A stretch of 21,487 bases of DNA from a virus (Duplodnaviria > Heunggongvirae > Uroviricota > Caudoviricetes). Each line of letters starts with the position of its first letter. Positions within the stretch are counted from its first letter, which is position 1. The translations under genes were made by a program, and so were the position numbers. Under the pieces are notes generated by a model. It searched no databases. It saw only the letters and a list, made by a program, of their open reading frames with translations, and had not been told where the DNA came from. The stretch is from positions 1 to 21,487 of the IMG/VR virus record IMGVR_UViG_2703718857_000003. One strand, 5' to 3'. Positions 3,019 to 21,487 of this stretch are shown here, one piece after another.

Positions 3019-3210
3019 TCAGCTTATCCAGTTTTCGGCACTTAAATCGCCGTTCGTCTGCGGGTCACTGCCCGGCATCGGGCAAAGGCTCACTTTCGGG
3101 CAGGCGTTGGGGACAATCACTGGCGTCGGTGCAGGCGTGGCGCTGGTGCAACCGGCGCACAGCATCAGGCAGGTCAGCACCGTACCAGCGGCGAAAATCT
3201 TCGTTCTCAT
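3019..3210 (-). CDS. lysC: LysC, Rz1-like lipoprotein spanin; 3' end overlaps lysB out of frame
   Basis: Product MRTKIFAAGTVLTCLMLCAGC... has a signal-peptide-like N-terminus with Cys residues (lipobox-like) and a Pro-rich tail; GAGG 8 nt upstream of the ATG at 3210. The maximal ORF extends to 3327, so the start is uncertain. Confidence 0.55.
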   Translation of the reverse strand: MRTKIFAAGTVLTCLMLCAGCTSATPAPTPVIVPNACPKVSLCPMPGSDPQTNGDLSAENWIS

Positions 3211-3903: not shown

Positions 3904-3940
3904 GGTGTTTACTCCGTTTTAAGGGCAGGGGGAAACCGTA

Positions 3941-4438
3941 ATGCCGGTTATTAACACGCATCAGAATATCGCCGCCTTTCTCGACATGCTGGCCGTGTCC
4001 GAAGGGACGGCGAACCATCCGCTGACGAAAAACCGGGGCTATGACGTGATAGTCACCGGACTGGACGGAAAGCCGGAAATTTTCACCGACTACAGTGACC
4101 ACCCGTTCGCACATGGCCGACCGGCGAAAGTGTTTAACCGTCGCGGTGAAAAATCCACGGCATCCGGTCGCTATCAGCAGCTTTACCTGTTCTGGCCGCA
4201 CTACCGCAAACAGCTTGCCCTGCCGGATTTCAGTCCGTTGTCACAGGACAGACTCGCCATTCAGTTGATCCGCGAACGCGGTGCACTGGATGACATCCGG
4301 GCGGGACGCATTGAGCGCGCCATTTCACGCTGTCGCAATATCTGGGCGTCCCTGCCGGGTGCCGGTTACGGTCAGCGTGAGCATTCACTGGAAAAACTGG
4401 TCACCGTCTGGCGTACCGCTGGCGGCGTACCGGCTTAA
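3941..4438 (+). CDS. K: Endolysin K (lambda R-like lytic transglycosylase), inverted relative to the lysis operon
   Basis: 165-aa product MPVINTHQNIAAFLDMLAVSEGT...GYDVIVTG...IWASLPGAGYGQ has clear similarity to lambda R-family lysozymes and the length of P2 gpK. It is on the opposite strand from flanking Y and lysA. Confidence 0.85.
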   Translation: MPVINTHQNIAAFLDMLAVSEGTANHPLTKNRGYDVIVTGLDGKPEIFTDYSDHPFAHGRPAKVFNRRGEKSTASGRYQQLYLFWPHYRKQLALPDFSPLSQDRLAIQLIRERGALDDIRAGRIERAISRCRNIWASLPGAGYGQREHSLEKLVTVWRTAGGVPA

Positions 4439-4696
4439 GCGGCGCTGAATGGCAATCTCAATCACCTGATAACCGGCGATACCCAGCATGGAGCCGATGC
4501 CGCACACCGCAGGCAGTGACAGGTCAGGAAACTGCACCAGAACAACACCGGCAACCATCGAGACAAAACCACCGAGCAACATGCGCCCGATAAACAGACG
4601 CGGGGTGATGGGTTCACCACCGGCAAGCACCTTGCCGACAACAATCAGCACCCCAATCATGAAAAGCGACAGGACGCTTTTTTCTTCTGCTGTCAT
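4385..4696 (-). CDS. Y: Holin Y, with C-terminus altered by the adjacent inversion
   Basis: 103-aa ORF with hydrophobic helices (LSLFMIGVLIVVGKVLAGG..., GFVSMVAGVVLVQF). The last 17 codons run through the 3' end of the inverted K segment. Confidence 0.7.
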   Translation of the reverse strand: MTAEEKSVLSLFMIGVLIVVGKVLAGGEPITPRLFIGRMLLGGFVSMVAGVVLVQFPDLSLPAVCGIGSMLGIAGYQVIEIAIQRRLSRYAASGTPDGDQFFQ

Positions 4697-5511: not shown

Positions 5512-6255
5512 TTAACTGGCTTTCTTTTTCGGGCGTCCACGTTTTGCCGGTGTCACGCTCCGGGTCTTACGCGGAGTGCGGGTGGCCGCTTTGGGCTGCG
5601 GCTCCGGCTTCGGTTTCAGCTCCCGCTCCAGTCGTTCAATCTCTTTTTTGACGCCTGCCTGACAGTCGAGCTGTGTCGCACGTTGCAGGTGCGCCAGCGC
5701 ACCGGCGGCATCACCAGCGTCACGCAGAAACAGACCGGTGATTTTGTGCAGCTTTGCGCGCACTTCATCAGGCATGTCAGCCGTGGCGGTCAGTTCGAGG
5801 GTGTCCGTCAGCAGGCGGGGATTCACAGACTCACCGGCAGCGTGAGCGCGCATGGCCGCAAGCGCCACCTCCTCGGTGAACATGTACGGCGGGGTGCGGC
5901 GGTGTTTACCCGGCATGGTCAGACCGTACTTCAGGGCATAACGGGCAATCTCCAGCGCACCGGCAATATCGCCGGTATCCAGACGCCACAGCATGACCGT
6001 CATCAGAATGTCATCCTGTGCACCTTTGCCCTGCTCCAGCACGCCGTTCACCCACGGCAACCAGAACGGCAGCAGTTCGCGTTTTTTCGCGGCCTTCAGC
6101 TCTTTTGAATAAATTGCTTTCAGTGTGCGCTGGTCTGCGGCCAGCTTGACCAGCATCTGCTCATAGACAGTTGCATGTCGCAGCGGGGCGGCTTCCCGCT
6201 GCGCGGTCATCGCTGCCGAGACCCGCATCATGTGGCGCTGTGCGGGACTCGTCAT
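5512..6255 (-). CDS. M: Terminase endonuclease (small) subunit M
   Basis: 247-aa ORF, the length of P2 gpM; basic Lys/Arg/Pro-rich C-terminus; synteny N-M-L. Confidence 0.8.
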   Translation of the reverse strand: MTSPAQRHMMRVSAAMTAQREAAPLRHATVYEQMLVKLAADQRTLKAIYSKELKAAKKRELLPFWLPWVNGVLEQGKGAQDDILMTVMLWRLDTGDIAGALEIARYALKYGLTMPGKHRRTPPYMFTEEVALAAMRAHAAGESVNPRLLTDTLELTATADMPDEVRAKLHKITGLFLRDAGDAAGALAHLQRATQLDCQAGVKKEIERLERELKPKPEPQPKAATRTPRKTRSVTPAKRGRPKKKAS

Positions 6256-6258
6256 CGG

Positions 6259-7332
6259 TTACGCTCCCGGCTCTGCGGTCGCCTTAGCCGGTGTGGAGAA
6301 ATCACCGACCTTAATTTTTTCCACCAGACAACCGGCGGCGTAGTCTTCCACCACGTAATCAATGTTCATTGACTCGTAGTTCTCCACGCGGTCGAGTTTC
6401 GGGTTTTCCTCAATCACGCGGCGATGGCTGTCATCCATGTAGTAGATGGACAGGTTTTCCAGCTTCGTGATGAGCATCGCATCCGCCGGGAAGTACGGGA
6501 CGCGTACCGCCGGCAGGTTACCGATGCGTTTCTGACTGATGATGACGTCAGCGGCCAGCATTTCGCTGTTGTCCTGCTCCTTGTTGACGATGGGGAAATA
6601 CTTGTCCGCCAGTAGCTGACGCCCCACAATCACCACAAGGTCAGGGTCTTCCTGATACCACGGCTCAATCAGGTTGTTGGTCGCATCCATCACCAGTGCA
6701 TCGAGGCTGGCATAATCACCGCCCTTACCCACGCGGATGACCTCAGAGGTCGTGTGACCTTCCTCGTCCGTAACCTTGCTCATCACGCGCGCCGGGGCTT
6801 CATTGCGGTATTTCTGCAGCCAGCCGACCGCCACATCCTGCAGCATCGGATTGCTGCTGCGGTCAGAGGTTTCTGCACGCTTCACACCGTTAAAACCGGC
6901 CATGATGAAATCAAGGGACTGGCGTTTGATAATGGCGTTACGGACACGGAGCTGGAAATCCTGATAACGCGCCCACAGGTCAAGCGTTTTGTAGCGGATA
7001 TAAAAATCGAAGTTAATCTGGTCGCATTCGTACTTGTTTGACGCCAGCTTCGAGAAGTCCTTCGGCTGACGCTCGGTGCCACCGGCGGTGTCGGTGGTGC
7101 TGGCGATGGAGCCGGTGACACCGATACCAATTTTTTCCCCTTTCATTTCGCTGACCGGCACAATGTTGATGCGGGTCAGAAAGTCAGAGGACTCCTGCAT
7201 GGTGTTCATCAGGGTCTGGGTGACCGACGGTTCAACGGTGAATTTTTTCGACACATCACCGGCGTCGATGCCGTTCAGTTCGGCAACACGGGACAGGTAA
7301 GCATTAAATTTAAAGCGGGTTTCCTGGCGCAT
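6259..7332 (-). CDS. N: Major capsid protein N
   Basis: 357-aa ORF, the length of P2 gpN; synteny O-N-M. Confidence 0.85.
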   Translation of the reverse strand: MRQETRFKFNAYLSRVAELNGIDAGDVSKKFTVEPSVTQTLMNTMQESSDFLTRINIVPVSEMKGEKIGIGVTGSIASTTDTAGGTERQPKDFSKLASNKYECDQINFDFYIRYKTLDLWARYQDFQLRVRNAIIKRQSLDFIMAGFNGVKRAETSDRSSNPMLQDVAVGWLQKYRNEAPARVMSKVTDEEGHTTSEVIRVGKGGDYASLDALVMDATNNLIEPWYQEDPDLVVIVGRQLLADKYFPIVNKEQDNSEMLAADVIISQKRIGNLPAVRVPYFPADAMLITKLENLSIYYMDDSHRRVIEENPKLDRVENYESMNIDYVVEDYAAGCLVEKIKVGDFSTPAKATAEPGA

Positions 7333-7390
7333 AGTTTTTCCTGAAATTAAGGGTTAATCGTGAAGGTTTTCCCGGACTGACTGACGCCGG

Positions 7391-8245
7391 TCAGCAGTTC
7401 GTCATCAGGGCGTCACCGCCACCACCGGTGGCCTTGCTGCGGCGCTGCTGGGTCAGACTTTCGGTGTGGTCGAGACTGTTTTTCAGGCGGGTGAATGCCT
7501 GGCTGGTTTCATCCGCCCTGTCAGTCACCTCCTGCTTAAGTGAGGAAAAGGCGGTTTCCATCTCAGCGAGGCGCTGCTCAGTGGCGCTCAGTTTTTCCTG
7601 CACATGTTCAGCGACAGCGGTCACCGCTTCATGCACGTCATTCAGACGGGCATCATCGCTGGCCTGTTTGCGGCCAAAAATGGACTTCACCTTTTCGGTC
7701 AGGGCGGTGAACACGGTTTCAGGCAGGTCTTCAAATTCCAGCTCAACAGGCGTTGCCACTGAAATCAGGTTTTCAGGGCTTAATTTGAAGCGGTTCAGGG
7801 GGTTGTGTTTTGCCGTGCGGCAGAATTCCAGGTATTCCGTGCCGAGGCTTGCCGGGTCATCGGTGACGGCCAGCCCCACCAGATAACATTTGCCGGTATT
7901 GGCAAAGTTCGGCTGAATTTCCATTGAGGTATAGACCTTCTGCGCGGCCTTGTTCATCGCGATAAGGTCATCGGTCGGGGTGATTTTCGCAAACAGCGCC
8001 CATTTGCCTTTCAGCGCCGAATCATCGTCAATCTTTTCGGCCTTCAGTTCGGCCACATCGCCATAACGCTTAAAAATACCGTCAGGCAGGATGCCGCGCA
8101 GATGTTCCAGGTTAATGCGGCAACCATAGACACGCGGGTCAAAGGTTTCGGCCATTTCCTGAATATCCTGCGCACTGATGACACGCCCGTCACAGGTGTC
8201 ACCCTCAACGCCGATACGAAAGAATTTTGAGACTTTTTTTGCCAT
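7391..8245 (-). CDS. O: Capsid scaffolding protein O
   Basis: 284 aa from the internal ATG at 8245 (MAKKVSKFFRIGVEGD...), the length of P2 gpO; coiled-coil-like C-terminus; divergent from P. Confidence 0.8.
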   Translation of the reverse strand: MAKKVSKFFRIGVEGDTCDGRVISAQDIQEMAETFDPRVYGCRINLEHLRGILPDGIFKRYGDVAELKAEKIDDDSALKGKWALFAKITPTDDLIAMNKAAQKVYTSMEIQPNFANTGKCYLVGLAVTDDPASLGTEYLEFCRTAKHNPLNRFKLSPENLISVATPVELEFEDLPETVFTALTEKVKSIFGRKQASDDARLNDVHEAVTAVAEHVQEKLSATEQRLAEMETAFSSLKQEVTDRADETSQAFTRLKNSLDHTESLTQQRRSKATGGGGDALMTNC

Positions 8246-8418
8246 TGTCAGGAGTCCTGAATAGTGATTAGAGGAGTCACATGTCGGCATCAGTTTCCCG
8301 ACGATGCGCATCCTCCGCCATCAGTCCCGGATGGCTTATCACTGACACAACAGCACCTTAGCGAATCGCGGGGCGCGACTCAGTAGCCTTGCCGTGTATT
8401 CATCACGGCGAGGTATTC
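8246..8418. promoter_or_regulatory. Divergent late-promoter region between O and P (expected Ogr-dependent)
   Basis: Position only: the intergenic space between divergent O and P start codons is where P2 carries its O- and P-operon late promoters. I could not identify the activator dyad with confidence. Confidence 0.3.
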
Positions 8419-9656
8419 ATGACCATCACCACAGACACCACTCTTTTACACGACCCGCGTCGTCAGGCGGCGCTGCTGTACTGGCAGGGGTTTTCCGTGC
8501 CGCAGATTGCCGCCATGTTGCAGATGAAACGCCCGACAGTGCAGAGCTGGAAACAGCGCGACGGCTGGGACAGCGTTGCCCCCATCAGCCGTGTCGAAAT
8601 GAGTCTGGAAGCGCGGCTGACCCAGCTCATCATCAAACCACAGAAAACCGGCGGTGACTTCAAGGAAATTGACCTGCTGGGACGCCAGATTGAACGACTG
8701 GCACGGGTCAACCGCTACAGCCAGACCGGCAACGAGGCAGACCTTAATCCGAACGTCGCTACCCGTTCTGGTCGGGTGAACTGTTCAACCGGGGACGCGC
8801 CAGCGCCGCCGAACGCGTGGAAATCGACGTCAGTCATAACGCACTTGCCGGAGGTCTTCTCTGTGCGGACGGCCAGTGGCGGCAGATTGTCACCATTGAG
8901 GACGCCCTGAAAGGTGGCTGCACGCTGTTCGACATTGAGCAGCTTAAACGCGAAAACAGCGCCGACGATTTTAAAAACCTGTTCATGTGTGAATTTGTTG
9001 ACGACAAGGCGTCGGTGTTCCCGTTCGAGGAGCTGCAACGCTGCATGGTCGACACGCTGGAAGAATGGGAAGACTATGCGCCGTTTGCCGCCAATCCGTT
9101 CGGCTCACGTCCGGTATGGATTGGTTACGACCCGTCACACCGTGGCGACAGTGCCGGATGCGTGGTGCTGGCACCGCCGGTGGTGGCCGGTGGCAAATTC
9201 AGAATACTTGAGCGTCACCAGTGGAAAGGCATGGACTTTGCCACCCAGGCTGAATCCATCCGCGAACTCACCGAAAAATACAACGTCGAATACATCGGTA
9301 TTGATGCCACCGGCCTCGGTGTCGGCGTGTTCCAGCTCGTGCGCTCGTTCTATCCCGCCGCGCGCGATATCCGCTACACGCCGGAAATGAAAACCGCAAT
9401 GGTGCTCAAGGCAAAAGACGTTATTCGCCGTGGCTGTCTGGAATATGACGTCAGCGCCACCGACATCACCAGCTCGTTTATGGCTATCCGCAAGACCATG
9501 ACCAGCAGCGGACGCAGCGCCACCTATGAGGCCAGCCGCAGCGAGGAAGCCAGCCACGCCGACCTCGCCTGGGCGACCATGCACGCCCTGTTAAATGAGC
9601 CACTCACCGCGGGTATCAGCACTCCGCTGACATCCACCATTCTGGAGTTTTACTGA
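8419..9656 (+). pseudogene. P: Large terminase (ATPase) subunit P, internally deleted and frameshifted
   Basis: The N-terminal part (MTITTDTTLLHDPRRQAALLYWQGF...NPNVA) is in one frame and the C-terminal RNaseH-like nuclease part (YPFWSGELF...VWIGYDPSH...IGIDATGLG...HADLAWA) is in another; the frames overlap between 8658 and 8910. The total span is ~412 codons versus ~590 for P2 gpP, and no Walker A/B ATPase segment is present. Confidence 0.7.
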
Positions 9657-10684
9657 TGAGCAAGAAAAAAGGGAAAACACCGCGACTAGCGGCAAAAAAA
9701 ATGACCGCCAGCGCCCCGAAAATGGAGGCATTCACCTTTGGTGAACCGGTGCCGGTACTCGACCGCCGTGACATTCTGGATTACGTCGAGTGCATCAGTA
9801 ACGGCAGATGGTATGAGCCACCGGTCAGCTTTACCGGTCTGGCAAAAAGCCTGCGTGCTGCCGTACATCACAGCTCACCGATTTACGTCAAACGTAATAT
9901 TCTGGCTTCAACGTTTATTCCGCACCCGTGGCTTTCCCAGCAGGATTTCAGCCGCTTTGTGCTGGATTTTCTGGTGTTCGGCAATGCGTTTCTGGAAAAG
10001 CGTTACAGCACCACCGGTAAGGTCATCAGACTGGAAACCTCACCGGCAAAATATACCCGCCGTGGGGTGGAAGAGGATGTTTACTGGTGGGTGCCGTCCT
10101 TCAACGAACCGACAGCCTTCGCGCCCGGCTCCGTATTTCACCTGCTGGAGCCGGATATCAATCAGGAGCTGTACGGCCTGCCGGAATATCTCAGCGCCCT
10201 TAACTCTGCCTGGCTGAATGAGTCGGCCACGCTGTTCCGCCGCAAGTATTATGAAAACGGCGCACATGCCGGATACATCATGTACGTCACCGATGCCGTG
10301 CAGGACCGCAACGATATCGAAATGCTTCGCGAAAACATGGTTAAGTCGAAAGGCCGCAATAACTTTAAAAATCTGTTTCTCTATGCCCCACAGGGGAAAG
10401 CCGACGGCATTAAAATTATCCCGCTCAGTGAAGTGGCAACGAAGGACGATTTTTTTAATATCAAAAAAGCCAGCGCCGCTGACCTGCTGGACGCGCACCG
10501 CATCCCCTTTCAGTTGATGGGGGGCAAGCCGGAGAACGTCGGGTCGCTGGGTGATATTGAGAAAGTGGCAAAGGTCTTTGTCCGCAATGAGCTTATCCCG
10601 TTACAGGACAGGATCCGCGAGATAAACGGCTGGCTCGGTCAGGAGGTCATCCGCTTTAAAGATTACAGTCTAGAATCTAATTAA
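9656..10684 (+). CDS. Q: Portal protein Q
   Basis: 342-aa ORF, close to the 344 aa of P2 gpQ; start overlaps the P stop (ATGA); synteny P-Q next to cos. Confidence 0.85.
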   Translation: MSKKKGKTPRLAAKKMTASAPKMEAFTFGEPVPVLDRRDILDYVECISNGRWYEPPVSFTGLAKSLRAAVHHSSPIYVKRNILASTFIPHPWLSQQDFSRFVLDFLVFGNAFLEKRYSTTGKVIRLETSPAKYTRRGVEEDVYWWVPSFNEPTAFAPGSVFHLLEPDINQELYGLPEYLSALNSAWLNESATLFRRKYYENGAHAGYIMYVTDAVQDRNDIEMLRENMVKSKGRNNFKNLFLYAPQGKADGIKIIPLSEVATKDDFFNIKKASAADLLDAHRIPFQLMGGKPENVGSLGDIEKVAKVFVRNELIPLQDRIREINGWLGQEVIRFKDYSLESN

Positions 10685-10779: not shown

Positions 10780-11469
10780 TCAATCTTTAACTTCAATATA
10801 TGAAGAAGAAAACCATATAGATTTTTTCCCATTTATGTATTTAGAAACAGGCGAGCCATCTTCGTTCATTGCCTCAGCACTAAATGTTACATAATACATT
10901 CCTTTTTCTTTTGTCGAAACAAGATAGTTCAAGCGTCTTTCGGCAGAGATAGGAACGGATATATCATATAAAGGTATATTTTTAGCTTTTCCTTGCGAGC
11001 TACTTTCTTCATTAAGAACAGCCAACTCCTCATAATAATTTGGATAAAAAACTTCCGTAGCGACTTGCTTTGCACCGGCCGATAAAACACGACTAACAGC
11101 AAGGGACTTGTTATTAAGCTTCACATAAATTCGCTCATTACTGTTATTCCTAATAGTTACAATAGGCTTTATATAAAACACATCATCGATTTTAACAACA
11201 TTAACGTCAACATTAAAAAATGTCGATTCTGTATTTCTAATTCTATTTCTTAACTCTATAAGATCAGCTTCTGCCTTATCCCTTTGGTGCAAAACATCAA
11301 AAGTATATCCTCCCCACACAAGTGTCAAAACAGCGCACAATGACATCACGACGTTATTAAACTGATCGTGTGTTCTGTAAATATCTTTGAATTTTAAAAT
11401 TAATAATAGACATGCTATGAATAGCATGCCTATTATCAGCCAGTGTTCTTTTACAAATTCAAAGTTCAT
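10780..11469 (-). CDS. Uncharacterised membrane protein with two N-terminal TM helices and a beta-rich soluble C-terminal domain (cargo)
   Basis: 229-aa ORF; hydrophobic segments WLIIGMLFIACLLLIL and VVMSLCAVLTLVWGGYTF, then a Ser/Asn/Lys/Val/Tyr-rich soluble domain. AT-rich codon usage; start 2 nt after the stop of the upstream ORF. No family recognised by eye. Confidence 0.6.
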   Translation of the reverse strand: MNFEFVKEHWLIIGMLFIACLLLILKFKDIYRTHDQFNNVVMSLCAVLTLVWGGYTFDVLHQRDKAEADLIELRNRIRNTESTFFNVDVNVVKIDDVFYIKPIVTIRNNSNERIYVKLNNKSLAVSRVLSAGAKQVATEVFYPNYYEELAVLNEESSSQGKAKNIPLYDISVPISAERRLNYLVSTKEKGMYYVTFSAEAMNEDGSPVSKYINGKKSIWFSSSYIEVKD

Positions 11470-11471
11470 AG

Positions 11472-12554
11472 TTAGTCACTCGCATGCCTCGCATCACCAT
11501 CTTCAGGGAAATTGATCCCCTGTCCGATCTCACGGTTCGTTGGACGAGCAGAAACAAAGCCTCTATTTTGTCTTTTTAAACGCAACTCTAGAACTTGAGA
11601 AACTCTATCAAAGTTTAATCCATCCATTGCAACCTCTTTTTTCCCTTCAATATGAGATCGAAGTTCCTCACTTATACGATTATCAACCGTTGAAGCGAAG
11701 GCTACATCATGATTAAAAATGGCCCCCATAATTAACATAAACGCAATTCCGGCCTTTCTATTATTTGTTTTAAATTGTAGCCAAACATCCCCCGGAGACA
11801 TCAACATTTGTTGAGCAGTCAAGGATAACTCTCCATTATTAGAAAGTCTTTCCATCTCAAACTGAACAACTTCGTTTGTATACTCGCCATCAAACTCTTC
11901 GCCAATTAATAGCGCAAGTACCTGCACTCTATCGACCAGCTCAGCCAGCTGCTTAAGAGTATGATGCCGAATGGCTTCTGCTTGCTCGACTCTTAAGCTA
12001 GTACAGAAAATATTATCCGTTATAAAGAATGACATTAACCAATGCAGTACTTCTTCTGACTTCCCGCCCAAAGAGAATACGGTCTGGTATGCAGTAAACG
12101 ATTTCTGAAGAGCTAATGGAATCTCTCGTCTGCGAACTGGCTCTCCCCATGTGACTCTACGTCTTACATGAAACCCTTCATTATTACCTAAACATTCACG
12201 CTCAAAATACGCGGAAGATGCAATAACTCCAGGAACAACCATATCACCTGACAAAGTGAAAACAACATCACCGACCTGCATATCTATGAGGAAATTTTCA
12301 ATTTGGGTATGAATATTTCTTGAACCAATAGTATCTAACCCATCAACCTTTTGATTAATATTTTCATGGTTAATTTCATCATTAAAGTCAATTTGATCTG
12401 GACTTAACCTATCCAAGTGAGCAGTAGCAACCATATTGCGTTCAAGGAAGTCTGCAAAATATCTATACTTAATCCCAGGTCTAACGACCCAACACTTTAC
12501 ATTTAAATCAACATGTTGTACTGAAATAGCTCTTTGTGATGAAGTTCCAAGCAT
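11472..12554 (-). CDS. Uncharacterised soluble protein, first gene of the two-gene cargo operon
   Basis: Long AT-rich ORF; 361 aa from the first ATG at 12554, or 366 aa from the TTG at 12572. No Walker, HNH, DxD-nucleotidyltransferase or other motif recognised by eye. Confidence 0.55.
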   Translation of the reverse strand: MLGTSSQRAISVQHVDLNVKCWVVRPGIKYRYFADFLERNMVATAHLDRLSPDQIDFNDEINHENINQKVDGLDTIGSRNIHTQIENFLIDMQVGDVVFTLSGDMVVPGVIASSAYFERECLGNNEGFHVRRRVTWGEPVRRREIPLALQKSFTAYQTVFSLGGKSEEVLHWLMSFFITDNIFCTSLRVEQAEAIRHHTLKQLAELVDRVQVLALLIGEEFDGEYTNEVVQFEMERLSNNGELSLTAQQMLMSPGDVWLQFKTNNRKAGIAFMLIMGAIFNHDVAFASTVDNRISEELRSHIEGKKEVAMDGLNFDRVSQVLELRLKRQNRGFVSARPTNREIGQGINFPEDGDARHASD

Positions 12555-12778
12555 AGCTGATCCATAATTCAAAAAATTTTACGCATTTTACATATTTTTA
12601 TTTAAGACTCTAGAGCGTTAGGAATGATGAATCGCTTCAACAGATTATTTTTTGTGCAGATAGTGTGCTTAAACCAACTCATCGTAACGAAAGCACTCGC
12701 CTGAATCGTAAAGATAACATCTCATGACTCGATTCATAGGCTAATAGTATTATGCAATGGTCGTTAATGGAGCGCGCA

Positions 12779-12797
12779 GTGCTTTCCCCGCCTCGCC
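12779..12797. other. cos site: 19-nt cohesive-end sequence GGCGAGGCGGGGAAAGCAC (read on minus strand)
   Basis: Exact match, on the minus strand, to the 19-nt cohesive-end sequence as I recall it for phage P2 (not verified against a database). Followed towards the Q side by TGCGCGCT and then AT-rich cargo. A GC hairpin plus T-run (12797-12820) abuts it on the A side. Confidence 0.6.
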
Positions 12798-12939: not shown

Positions 12940-14292
12940 TCAACCCTCTGCCGAAATATTTCTTTGGAGAAATGCTCTAATTTTTTGCCTGAAAGCCTCA
13001 CATTCATCAGGCTTTAACCTCTCAAGGTATTCAAAAATCCTAGTTTCATCCCAGCCGTTGTTATAGGTTTTCACTACCCCTCGATAAACTTGCTTATCAA
13101 GTTTATCGTTACCTCTAGTTGTAACTCTCGGGATCGATTCATCTTGGCCGTATGCTTGATAGAAATCCTTCTCAACGCTTTGGAAAGGTATGCATAAAAT
13201 ATTTTCACCTCGAGCATACCTTTGACCTAATTGATCTCCGTCTAACACTGAGATCACATTCTGTTGAGTCGTGAGAAAGCTCTCTCTCTCATTACGACGC
13301 ATTAAATCAATGACATTAGTTCCTCCACCAACATATATTATTTTATATTCGTAGAAGTAATCATTCCCAGGAGCATTAATTATATATTCTAAGAAATTTT
13401 GCAGAACTTCATCTTCAGTAAGAATGTACTTATCCCATCCTTTAAATCCAAAAAGCGTACTTTTTATATAATTATATGATCGATTTGTAATTGTAGTTCC
13501 AGCATCACCTTCGCACATATAGTACAATTCATCATCATTCAGCGTTTGCATTAAAGCAAGTGAATGTGTTGTGAATACAATATTCACCGAGTGTCTCTGA
13601 CAATATTTCCTTAGCACTGCTATAAGATGGACTTGCGCCGAAGAGTCTAGTGATATATCTATCTCATCTATGACAATGAATTTTCTTTTGAGCTCAATCA
13701 TTCTAAATAAATTCAAAATAAAATACTCACCCGAGCTAAAGTAATCCTCCCTTATGTATGTTCCGTTCTCATTCAATCTGAAATAGAAAATTTCATTTTT
13801 TACAGAAAATGCTTTAAGATTATTGTAAGAAGAAGACTGATATACCTCATTGAGTATATTTATCAAATCCTCGGGAACGCTATAGCTTTCAAACGCAATA
13901 CTTTTTCTAAGTTCAGTATCAATTTTACTAAGTGTTGGGAAGTTATTGAACCTCATTCCATGAGGAATGGGCAACTCGACATAAAGATTGGATTTTATAT
14001 CTGCTGGAATTATTTGCTTAGTATCTATTACCTTCAAATTCTCATCATAGACATATACTATATCTTGATCATTAATATTATATACTATACTACTGTCAGG
14101 ATTGAATATATATCTAGAAGATGTCTTTATGAATGTATCTGCTGATTGTAAATTTTTAATTGCTTTGATTAGCGTTGTCTTTCCAGCACCGTTCTTTCCT
14201 ACAATGCAAGTCAGTTTATTTTCAGAAAGATCAATAGCAAATGACATATGTTCAACATGCTGGATTTTCGAGATCTCAATATTTATTTTCAT
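12940..14292 (-). CDS. OLD-family ABC-type ATPase with C-terminal Toprim-like domain (retron-associated effector candidate)
   Basis: 450 aa; Walker A GKNGAGKTT near the N-terminus, Walker B FIVIDEIDISLD, H-loop-like VFTTHS; C-terminal ILTEDEV and VLDGDQLG resemble the Toprim Glu and DxD motifs. Start ATG is 1 nt after the RT stop, indicating translational coupling. Confidence 0.7.
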   Translation of the reverse strand: MKINIEISKIQHVEHMSFAIDLSENKLTCIVGKNGAGKTTLIKAIKNLQSADTFIKTSSRYIFNPDSSIVYNINDQDIVYVYDENLKVIDTKQIIPADIKSNLYVELPIPHGMRFNNFPTLSKIDTELRKSIAFESYSVPEDLINILNEVYQSSSYNNLKAFSVKNEIFYFRLNENGTYIREDYFSSGEYFILNLFRMIELKRKFIVIDEIDISLDSSAQVHLIAVLRKYCQRHSVNIVFTTHSLALMQTLNDDELYYMCEGDAGTTITNRSYNYIKSTLFGFKGWDKYILTEDEVLQNFLEYIINAPGNDYFYEYKIIYVGGGTNVIDLMRRNERESFLTTQQNVISVLDGDQLGQRYARGENILCIPFQSVEKDFYQAYGQDESIPRVTTRGNDKLDKQVYRGVVKTYNNGWDETRIFEYLERLKPDECEAFRQKIRAFLQRNISAEG

Positions 14293-14293
14293 T

Positions 14294-15283
14294 TTAATTT
14301 ACATTCTTGTAAAAAAGCATATCGACAATCGTATTTCCGTATTTTCTCTTTAGCTTATCGAGATAACTCTTATCAATTGTGTTTATATGATTCAAAAGAC
14401 CAGAAACTGTATTAACGCCCTTTTCCAAGATCTCACTATCATTCAATCCGCTAGTTTTAACCTTAGGATCTTTTATTATAGAATCTATAAATTTATCTTT
14501 ATCCGTTACATAAAAATGAATCAAATGCTCAAGCTTTCTTTTTATTTTAATATCAACAGAGACTATCTGAGACGGTAAAATAACCATCCCCAGCAGCTTA
14601 ATCTTACTGCCTTTTTTAATCAATTTAGTTTTTGCTGAGTTTAGTTTGAAATGTCCCTTCCCAAACTCACCCAGCAGGTCACTTACTACAGAATGAATAT
14701 TCTCAAAGCCCTCATCATTTTCAGAGGAAATAATAATATCATCTGAATAGCGTGTGAATATATATTCATGGTTAATACAATATTGCTGCATCTCAACATC
14801 AAAGTCATATAAACATGCATTGCTGAAAGCTGGTGATGTCGGGAACCCTACAGGCAACGAATTATCGATAATAATATAATCTAAAATTTTATCCAAGTGT
14901 ATATTTAAATCGGAAATGGGAACGTTCGATAAGTTATCAACTAAAACTGATCGTGCATATTCACGAGTTATCGATGGGAAAAAGCTTTTAATATCAGTAT
15001 TGAAGAATATCTTACTACAGGCGTGAAGTTTTACTGCATCATAAGTGCTGCTTCCTTTTCTATACGAAAACACAACATCCTTATTTACTTTCAAGTATGA
15101 AAGAACAAATTCATTTATGAATTTGTGATACTCTTTTAGTTTAGAAGTGGGCTCAGCAATTAACCTTTCATCAAAGGTTATAAATTTAGTTTGTTGAAAT
15201 GGTTCAAACGAAAGAAAGTTTTGAAAGGAATCTTTTTCGAAGAATGCAATATTGAAGGCTTTTTCGAGACTAAGGGGTTTCAT
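14294..15283 (-). CDS. Retron-type reverse transcriptase
   Basis: 329 aa with RT motifs in order: NTDIKSFFPSI (domain 2), LPVGFPTSPAFSNA (domain 4), FTRYSDDIIIS (YxDD catalytic box). Motif order and spacing parallel retron Ec86 RT as I recall it (NIDLEDFFPSL / LPQGAPSSPKLANL / YTRYADDLTLS); size is typical of retron RTs. Confidence 0.8.
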   Translation of the reverse strand: MKPLSLEKAFNIAFFEKDSFQNFLSFEPFQQTKFITFDERLIAEPTSKLKEYHKFINEFVLSYLKVNKDVVFSYRKGSSTYDAVKLHACSKIFFNTDIKSFFPSITREYARSVLVDNLSNVPISDLNIHLDKILDYIIIDNSLPVGFPTSPAFSNACLYDFDVEMQQYCINHEYIFTRYSDDIIISSENDEGFENIHSVVSDLLGEFGKGHFKLNSAKTKLIKKGSKIKLLGMVILPSQIVSVDIKIKRKLEHLIHFYVTDKDKFIDSIIKDPKVKTSGLNDSEILEKGVNTVSGLLNHINTIDKSYLDKLKRKYGNTIVDMLFYKNVN

Positions 15284-20491: not shown

Positions 20492-21487
20492 ATGTCTATT
20501 AAAAAGCTCGATGATGGTCGTTATGAAGTGGACGTCAGACCGCAGGGTGCAGATGGAAAACGTATCAGGCGGAAATTTAAAACTAAAGGTGAAGCTCAAG
20601 CATTCGAACGTCATGTACTGGTTAACTACCACAACAAAGAGTGGTTGGAGAAACCAGCCGACCGCCGAACTCTTACAGAGTTGTTAGGCAGATGGTGGAT
20701 ATATCACGGAAAATCACATGAGCGTGGAGATATTGAACGGGGGCGTTTAACGACAATAATCGCCAAATTTGCAGAAATGGGAGTGTCCAGAGCTGACCAG
20801 CTAACAAAGAAAACGATAACTGATTATCGCGTTGTAATGATGAACGATGGTCTGAAACCAGCCAGCGTAAATCGACATCTGGCAATAATGAGCGGGATGT
20901 TCACCAAGTTAATTGACGCCGGTGAATACCACTCTCACAACCCGTTCCGTGAGATTAAACGGTTACGTGAAGCTGTTACGGAAATGGCTTTTTTGTCCAG
21001 TGAAGAGATTACGCGGCTGTTATCCATGCTTGATGGTGATGAATTAAATGCAACTCTGGTCTGCCTTTCTACTGGTGGACGCTGGAGTGAAGTATCTAAT
21101 TTAAAAGCTGAACACATCATTAACCAGATGGTTACGTTTATGAAAACTAAAAACGGAAAACGCAGGACAATTCCCGTTTCGCAGGACCTGATTAAACGGA
21201 TCAAGACCAAAAATTCAGGCAGGCTTTTTAATGCCAGTTACTACAAAGTGCGTAACGCTCTCAGGGAAGTAAAACCCGATTTACCTGACGGACAAGCAGT
21301 ACATGTTTTGAGGCATACATTTGCCACACATTTTATAATGAATGGAGGTAACATAATCACATTGCAGCGCATCCTGGGTCATTCTAACATTCAGCAAACT
21401 ATGACCTACGCACACTTTGCACCGGATTTCTTACAAGATGCTGTGACTCTTAACCCGGTGTCAGGAATGTCCATAATGCGTCCATAA
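20492..21487 (+). CDS. int: Tyrosine integrase (P2 Int-like)
   Basis: 331-aa ORF ending ...HVLRHTFATHF...LGHSNIQQTMTYAHF, containing the R...HxxR...Y catalytic signature of tyrosine recombinases; GGAGGG Shine-Dalgarno; sits next to C as in P2. Confidence 0.85.
   Translation: MSIKKLDDGRYEVDVRPQGADGKRIRRKFKTKGEAQAFERHVLVNYHNKEWLEKPADRRTLTELLGRWWIYHGKSHERGDIERGRLTTIIAKFAEMGVSRADQLTKKTITDYRVVMMNDGLKPASVNRHLAIMSGMFTKLIDAGEYHSHNPFREIKRLREAVTEMAFLSSEEITRLLSMLDGDELNATLVCLSTGGRWSEVSNLKAEHIINQMVTFMKTKNGKRRTIPVSQDLIKRIKTKNSGRLFNASYYKVRNALREVKPDLPDGQAVHVLRHTFATHFIMNGGNIITLQRILGHSNIQQTMTYAHFAPDFLQDAVTLNPVSGMSIMRP

Follow-up and report, generated by a model that had tools for sequence, protein, structure and literature searches.

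The large terminase gene of this prophage, P (8419-9656), raises two questions: can the locus still provide a working large terminase subunit, and how did it come to be divided between two reading frames? We addressed these questions in the window, the whole 21,487-nt stretch of DNA analysed here. The window is an entire P2-like (Peduovirus) prophage, extending from ogr (1-219) to int (20492-21487), and its genes follow the order of phage P2 (ogr-D-U-T...lys-L-M-N-O / P-Q-cos-(cargo)-A-B-cox-C-int) with three rearrangements. A preliminary description, made from the sequence alone, had placed the N-terminal and nuclease parts of P in different frames. Pfam searches, reading of the frames and alignment to P2 all bore this out.

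The deletion in gene P and what it leaves

According to blastn, positions 8300-9800 of the window align to P2 as two collinear blocks with a mutual offset of 535 bp, that is, 178 codons plus 1 nt. The left block (8300-8766) comprises the pO/pP promoter region and gpP codons 1-116 and is identical to P2 at 466 of 467 positions. The right block (8750-9800) comprises gpP from codon ~290 to the stop and the beginning of Q, and is 97.3% identical to P2. The same region matched 118 phage records and 1670 E. coli records, and all matches listed were two-piece alignments over 2036 subject bases. Relative to both phage P2 and the intact Ec-U9-2 prophage (NZ_CM192140.1, beside pflB/pflA), the window has thus lost codons 115-292 and one additional nucleotide. 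The preliminary description had counted ~113 N-terminal codons and ~180 absent ones; the retained segment and the loss both stand, with the counts corrected to 114 native codons and to 178 codons plus 1 nt, respectively.

The junction had been read as NPNVA / YPFWSGELF at 8757-8762, which is exact. Codon 114 (GCT) finishes at position 8760, and the same T8760, which corresponds to P2 coordinate 2117, opens TAC, codon Y293, in the other frame. The TA at 8760-8761 on the plus strand is common to both parental sites. Intact P contains two imperfect direct repeats of 17-18 nt, CGAACGTCG-CTAACCGT at codons ~111-116 and CGCACGACGCCTACCCGT at codons ~288-294, which agree at 14 of 17 positions. According to the P2 alignment, the window retains a single hybrid copy, CGAACGTCGCTACCCGT (8750-8766, plus strand), which places the crossover within the shared TA. 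The repeat also accounts for the 17-nt overlap of the two blastn blocks. Exact homology at the junction is confined to the TA, as in a short-homology deletion, and no IS or foreign DNA occurs at 8760-8761.

The frame of P is broken by the length of the deletion, with no homopolymer involved. A sequencing or homopolymer error at the junction was ruled out, as 535 bp are lost and the junction lies outside any run; a frameshift with no missing sequence, the refutation that the preliminary description had allowed for, is contradicted by 535 bp that are truly missing between TA-joined ends. The first BLAST alignment could be read as an in-frame 534-bp deletion with a separate 1-nt indel. That reading was rejected because the gap falls inside the imperfect repeat, which makes the loss one event. 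None of 5,426 complete E. coli genomes contains the junction as a single piece, and neither do the viral contigs, metagenome contigs and species-representative genomes searched. The exact 163-aa product of 8419-8910 likewise had no record among the protein sequences searched. Proteins encoded near P in the window have identical counterparts in E. coli, which places the source in this species but outside the set of complete genomes; by these searches, the P lesion is private to it.

Two remnants of P persist on the plus strand. The 5' remnant is an ORF of 163 aa (8419-8910), made up of 114 native residues carrying the HTH/Terminase_5 domain and 49 out-of-frame residues that end at a TGA (8908-8910). 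The 3' remnant (8760-9656) runs uninterrupted from codon Y293 to Y590 and the stop, out of frame with the start codon, and still encodes the whole RNase-H-like nuclease domain, preceded by the last part of the ATPase domain. Its longest callable ORF (8817-9656) encodes 279 aa from a GTG; no obvious ribosome-binding site was seen ahead of the GTG at 8817.

A domain search of both segments, which the preliminary description had proposed together with the alignment to gpP, found no intact ATPase domain in either. The first segment matched only Terminase_5, the N-terminal HTH (residues 12-69; E = 4e-28). The second matched only the last third of Terminase_6N (profile positions 143-215), followed by a complete Terminase_6C (E = 1e-47) in a frame unconnected to the start codon. 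In the intact Ec-U9-2 relative, Terminase_6N occupies residues 164-386 (profile positions 2-215). An NCBIfam search yielded nothing informative. Residues 115-292 of the P2 protein, which are those lost from the window, include all three of the motifs KSRQIGAT, LYVDE and STP. We take these, by analogy with T4 gp17, to be the Walker A, Walker B and coupling motifs, respectively, and the Walker A/B segment is absent as had been claimed.

Over all retained sequence, the window is 98% identical in nucleotides to the gene for P2 gpP, a protein of Terminase_5, Terminase_6N and Terminase_6C domains. The gene is placed as in P2, flanked by the divergent pO/pP promoters on one side and by Q on the other, and still overlaps Q at TGATG. 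By contrast with P2, it is without codons 115-292, the ATPase motif and a single ORF. Two features by which the gpP family is recognized, the ATPase core and a single frame of ~590 codons, are both wanting in the window. On sequence grounds, the locus is a pseudogene remnant of the gpP family and no working member of it.

The late promoter region of the P operon (8325-8396, plus strand) is intact in sequence. The P2 annotation, transferred via the alignment (window = L001 + 7299), places the binding site of the activator Ogr at 8325-8355 and the start of P transcription at 8396. Downstream, the portal gene Q (9656-10684, plus strand; 342 aa) is intact. Because its ATG overlaps the stop of P, normal translational coupling of Q to P would be lost, and Q expression is probably reduced through this loss and through polarity.

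The P2 terminase requires the ATPase of gpP. As the ATPase core is absent, the prophage would be packaging-defective: we infer that gene P is dead and that the prophage is unable to cut or translocate its own DNA. The earlier view that it cannot package on its own is supported to this extent by the missing ATPase core and by the tail deletion described below. Judged as a gene, the P of the window is unremarkable, one more pseudogene of a prophage in decay; the allele is new and the kind of object is known. The lesion alone is useful for annotation and for predicting no spread without a helper. Beyond this, its interest lies solely in the right breakpoint, which falls on a TA-specific site where deletions have ended repeatedly.

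A recurrent breakpoint at codon Y293

The T at P2 coordinate 2117 is the endpoint of 12 independent, DNA-verified collinear deletions of 0.4-18.8 kb, including that of the window. All 12 resume at the T of TACCCGTTCTGG. They extend from the T of Y293 towards the head and tail genes, and their left ends are scattered over 19 kb: in P (two), N, S, J (two), FII, upstream of E, T (two), U and D. The junctions verified in DNA are those of the window and of L005, L006, L007, L023/27, L028, L030, L031-L034 and L040.

These events were collected by several routes. Looking up the 279-aa product of the 3' remnant, a route biased to about 135 nt, returned three other defective P2-like prophages whose other ends lie in U, J and FII. 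A pattern search for the site sequence after a non-native base added three events from metagenomes; four of the 12 junctions were reached with such a pattern, which itself forces the boundary at the T. Fusion proteins found by homology search yielded four more events, and a second search one further, intragenic event. To these we can add a sample of fused or truncated P proteins that is unbiased over codons 1-311. In this sample, 7 of 27 junctions fall at codon 293, as against about 0.1 expected, and the others are scattered singletons. Junctions at codon 293 also occur, as protein fusions, in four divergent lineages with 83%, ~72%, 64% and 59% identity to P2 gpP. The corresponding DNA in these lineages reads TATCCGTTYTGGTC and differs at wobble positions.

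The partner sites follow a simple rule. Ten of the 11 native partner sites examined start with TA, and the length of homology is exactly 2 nt at eight of these ten; the remaining two have 3 nt and 5 nt, respectively. Exactly 2 nt in eight of ten is as a bare TA requirement predicts. Other deletions in the same contigs have ordinary, unrelated microhomologies and do not obey the TA rule. TA occurs at 44 sites in gene P (median spacing, 32 nt), such that the TA of the hotspot is not isolated and scarcity of TA is ruled out as a cause.

Further events touch the same site. Rightward deletions start from the same TA and end at Y498, where CTAC is shared (15 contigs), or in Q, where the two ends form a 17-nt imperfect repeat; the latter also occur in a lineage of 81% identity. 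An in-frame Y207|Y293 deletion ends at the hotspot TA, and a Halomonas relative has a -1 frameshift at exactly the hotspot T. No inversions from the site were seen among the events examined, the products all being collinear deletions. Loss at the site is rare: 18 of 1633 complete E. coli genome records were without most of a 400-nt probe centred on it. Overall, these comparisons of sequence indicate that the right breakpoint of the window deletion is not random. We found no description in the literature of a breakpoint at codon 293 of P2-like prophages.

A survey of P2-like elements saw no obvious pattern of pseudogenized core components in inactive elements (PMC13586616). The defective P2-like prophages of enterobacteria in that survey resemble the window in having deletions and pseudogenes while keeping defence cargo (PMC13586616). 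By contrast with the survey, one exact nucleotide of P recurs here as a breakpoint.

Three explanations of the lesion would deny it this significance or its consequence. That the missing 535 bp are an artefact of assembly or sequencing, the real P being intact, is very improbable. The exact junction did occur in no other record searched. However, a 535-bp loss is unlike a homopolymer-type error, and the stretch shared by both sites, 2 nt exactly or 17 nt imperfectly, is much too short for an assembly graph to collapse on it. Assemblies from different pipelines at NCBI, ENA, JGI and Logan also show this breakpoint base, and a neighbouring inversion allele of the prophage has been recorded independently. 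Equally hard to credit is a split P that still functions, by programmed frameshifting or as a two-piece terminase, or whose fragments are re-used, for example against P2-like phages. The HTH and nuclease domains are each undamaged in sequence, the promoter is intact, and comparable short N-terminal P proteins are annotated in E. coli (P0360). Nevertheless, the ATPase core is physically gone, and hence no frameshifting restores packaging; the nuclease frame is without a start that has an obvious ribosome-binding site. Since the junction is unique to the source genome, nothing shows maintenance by selection, and the same prophage carries two further disabling rearrangements.

Somewhat less remote, and still improbable, is a one-off generic slipped-strand deletion between the imperfect 17-nt repeats, the hotspot being a product of ascertainment and chance. 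The window junction does lie in a direct repeat matching at 14 of 17 positions, extended imperfect homology is also present at L034, L006 and L037, and two of the three search routes are biased to this position. Moreover, the rightward events have longer microhomology (CTAC and the 17-nt imperfect repeat), so part of the recurrence may be ordinary. Against slippage, the excess at codon 293 comes from the protein sample that is unbiased over codons 1-311, most partners share TA only, and a single TA among the 44 in P, itself not isolated, is joined to 12 left ends over 19 kb. The same codon is also used in lineages that differ at wobble positions. We infer from this evidence that the window deletion is not generic microhomology slippage. 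Taken jointly, it is very probable that this gpP pseudogene arose by one 535-bp deletion, made by a TA-specific breakpoint process, in a defective prophage that persists. A deletion between the two TA-containing imperfect repeats of P removed the ATPase core and shifted the frame. It left the frame of a 163-aa N-terminal HTH fragment and an out-of-frame nuclease domain that would go untranslated.

Several other features of broken P genes were observed in these searches. Two further positions are recurrent endpoints at a TA with several partners: Y498 (CGC|TACACG; L038/L039, P0033, P0096, P0030, P0360 and P0276) and Q codon ~108 (TTCGG|TAATGC; L027, P0278 and P0069). Some of these endpoint pairs are explained by 5-9-nt imperfect repeats. 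Prophages broken at the hotspot (L006, L027, L028, L034, L037, L038 and L040) usually have two to four separate deletions each, and several keep little beyond ogr, a D or U fragment, P', Q, cargo and early genes. A different, widespread pseudogene allele of P (P0009; 263 aa, 300 members; H45, NZ_CP067342.1) has a 1-nt frameshift near codon 343 of a gene that is otherwise of full length, and its C-terminal piece is often annotated 'oxidoreductase'. Finally, the 373-aa protein P0272, from a 5.9-Mb NCBI contig, fuses P residues 1-295 to 78 residues of an unrelated, real-looking protein, and may represent an inversion or insertion junction two codons beyond the hotspot.

Candidate mechanisms for the breakpoint

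The window deletion probably arose, as a small product, from a process specific to the breakpoint at the hotspot TA. Such a process could be either the breaking or the joining of strands with a test of about 2 nt of homology, or a switch of template during replication from a fixed stop. We tentatively propose that a specific activity, breaking or joining DNA, acts on the conserved site GCN|TAYCCGTTYTGG (codon Y293) of the large-terminase gene and would generate nested TA-to-TA deletions of late genes, from E. coli to Halomonas.

A possible agent, conceivable rather than probable, is a site-specific enzyme, either an endonuclease or a recombinase. It would cut the conserved YPFWSG-coding DNA around the TA or on its 5' side, and the end would then be joined to another TA. 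Candidates would be a nuclease bound to the conserved side, a homing-type nuclease that belongs to some competing element, or a recombinase of the tyrosine or serine class for which the site acts as a pseudo-site. Cutting is consistent with one end being kept nucleotide-exact in all 12 events, with the need for only 2 nt beside the break, and with products that are all collinear deletions and never inversions. It would also fit the retention of either side, the -1 frameshift of the Halomonas relative at the same T, and the conservation of the target DNA across lineages. However, no intein or insertion was present at residue 293 in the 150 best representative homologues (compared as proteins, in which introns are invisible), and no IS or foreign DNA at any hotspot junction. 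The site has no likeness to the P2 ori nick site or the P2 attP core, nor, when compared by eye, to dif. The cargo differs among affected prophages, such that no shared accessory enzyme is apparent; the analysis turned up no enzyme for the role, and the window has no Chi site to protect an end. Features expected of a recombinase pseudo-site are mixed: breakpoints are exact at both partners and identity is found only beside the cut, and likeness to the attP core is absent.

A rather unlikely alternative to cutting is that a polymerase halts after the hotspot T and that its 3' end (…GGGTA) re-primes on a TA further along the template. Rolling-circle replication of P2 from the ori in gene A probably runs through A, cos, Q, P, O and onward. 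The nested deletions run one way from a fixed point, in the same direction as this presumed replication. Microhomology starts at the fixed base and extends into the retained side, being exactly 2 nt in eight of ten cases, and there is weak similarity past the TA (by hand count, 22 of 44 positions agree with CCCG, as against about 11 expected). By contrast, re-priming gives no reason for a halt at the hotspot base, an ACCCG/CGGGT hairpin being absent in lineages that also break there. Rightward events exist, and similarity is also found upstream of the TA (CG within 6 nt in 10 of 12, by hand count), which re-priming does not need.

Deletion hotspots at the nick sites of the rolling-circle replicons M13 and pC194 were reportedly described by Michel and Ehrlich in 1986. 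They resemble the P hotspot in that one end is fixed to the nucleotide and the other is variable with few shared bases. The fixed end in M13 and pC194 is the Rep nick in the origin, whereas the hotspot lies in a terminase gene and is unlike the P2 ori nick region.

A number of specific causes were considered and rejected. A pseudo-origin for P2 gpA was discarded because ori (GCGCCTC|GGAGTCC) and the site (GACGCC|TACCCG) have only CGCCT in common. Neither a pseudo-att of P2 Int nor a pseudo-dif of XerCD (again by eye) showed convincing similarity, and the affected prophages carry different integrases. P2 has a small hairpin at the site (ACCCG-N7-CGGGT), but breakage driven by it fails as a general cause: two divergent lineages without the hairpin also break at codon 293. 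IS-mediated deletion was ruled out, as all 12 hotspot junctions join phage DNA directly to phage DNA, and the partner sites do not fit either an IS110/IS621-type CT core or the IS5 target YTAR. Three more ideas were set aside for the reasons given above: that residue 293 hosts an intein or other insertion, that Chi shields the retained end, and that the affected prophages share a cargo-encoded enzyme.

Prophage decay is usually viewed as random deletion followed by selection. If reuse of the breakpoint is real, part of this decay would be mechanistically directed. If the proposed breaking or joining activity exists, it would provide a recurrent, defined route to defective prophages that keep cos, portal, replication, integration and defence cargo, and the 535-bp deletion of the window would be its smallest kind of product. 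The hotspot is a concrete site at which to ask which host or phage activity inactivates prophages.

The surrounding prophage

The Ec-U9-2 prophage, an intact sister, has the same gene order and orientation as the window. The two are 99.6-99.9% identical over ogr-D-U, the head genes, P, Q and the cargo between Q and cos, and ~96% identical over blocks of the lysis genes and the early region. The window is 11 kb shorter than its sister: its tail genes have lost 10.3 kb and its P 535 bp, and its gene K is inverted.

The head and packaging cluster, defined by ORFs and domains, occupies 5512-10684, with M, N and O on the minus strand and P and Q on the plus strand. The small terminase subunit gene M (5512-6255; 247 aa) is intact, and N (6259-7332) and O (7391-8311) have the lengths found in the intact relative; overall, M, N, O, L and Q are as long as their intact counterparts. 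The 19-nt cohesive-end sequence, cos, lies on the minus strand at 12779-12797 and is identical to that of P2 (GGCGAGGCGGGGAAAGCAC). The preliminary description had called M, Q and cos intact, which holds for all three (M 247 aa, Q 342 aa, P2 19-mer), but cos does not adjoin Q as it does in P2. It sits 2.1 kb past Q, beyond a two-gene cargo, an arrangement shared with Ec-U9-2. This position of cos, the recurrent right breakpoint in P and the inversion of the lysozyme gene K go beyond that description.

The tail deletion, by contrast, had been recognized. It extends over 10.3 kb, T to R, and its ends, now joined at 3035-3036, have a microhomology of TC only. The deletion took the 5' part of T, then E, E', FII, FI, G, H, I, J, W, V, an orf, S and R, as well as the end of lysC. 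The third rearrangement is a 529-bp inverted segment (3914-4442) that takes in lysozyme gene K along with the final codons of holin Y, such that the K ORF (3941-4438) is now on the plus strand. The segment is bounded by the imperfect inverted repeats CCGTTTAAG and CTTAAAGCGG. One of its junctions has gained a T, and the other has lost an A. The altered 103-aa holin that results from the inversion is also recorded in two other E. coli contigs (WP_061354870.1).

The prophage is predicted to be defective in packaging and tail formation, and probably in lysis, a wider defect than the preliminary description had suggested. Its immunity, integration and replication genes and its defence cargo look intact. 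The element thus appears to persist as a defective, defence-carrying prophage.

The cargo occupies two places, both on the minus strand. Between Q and cos, where P2 has 186 bp, two genes are present (10780-12572). The product of one, of 229 aa, is without a family; its 366-aa partner matches the candidate defence family PDC-S02 and is annotated as DUF8426 in Ec-U9-2. Beyond cos lies a type I-B retron (12940-15283). Its reverse transcriptase (14294-15283) matches RT_I-B with E = 6e-110, and its ATPase-Toprim effector (12940-14292) gave a match with E = 3e-179. At the corresponding place, Ec-U9-2 carries another retron-type RT locus.
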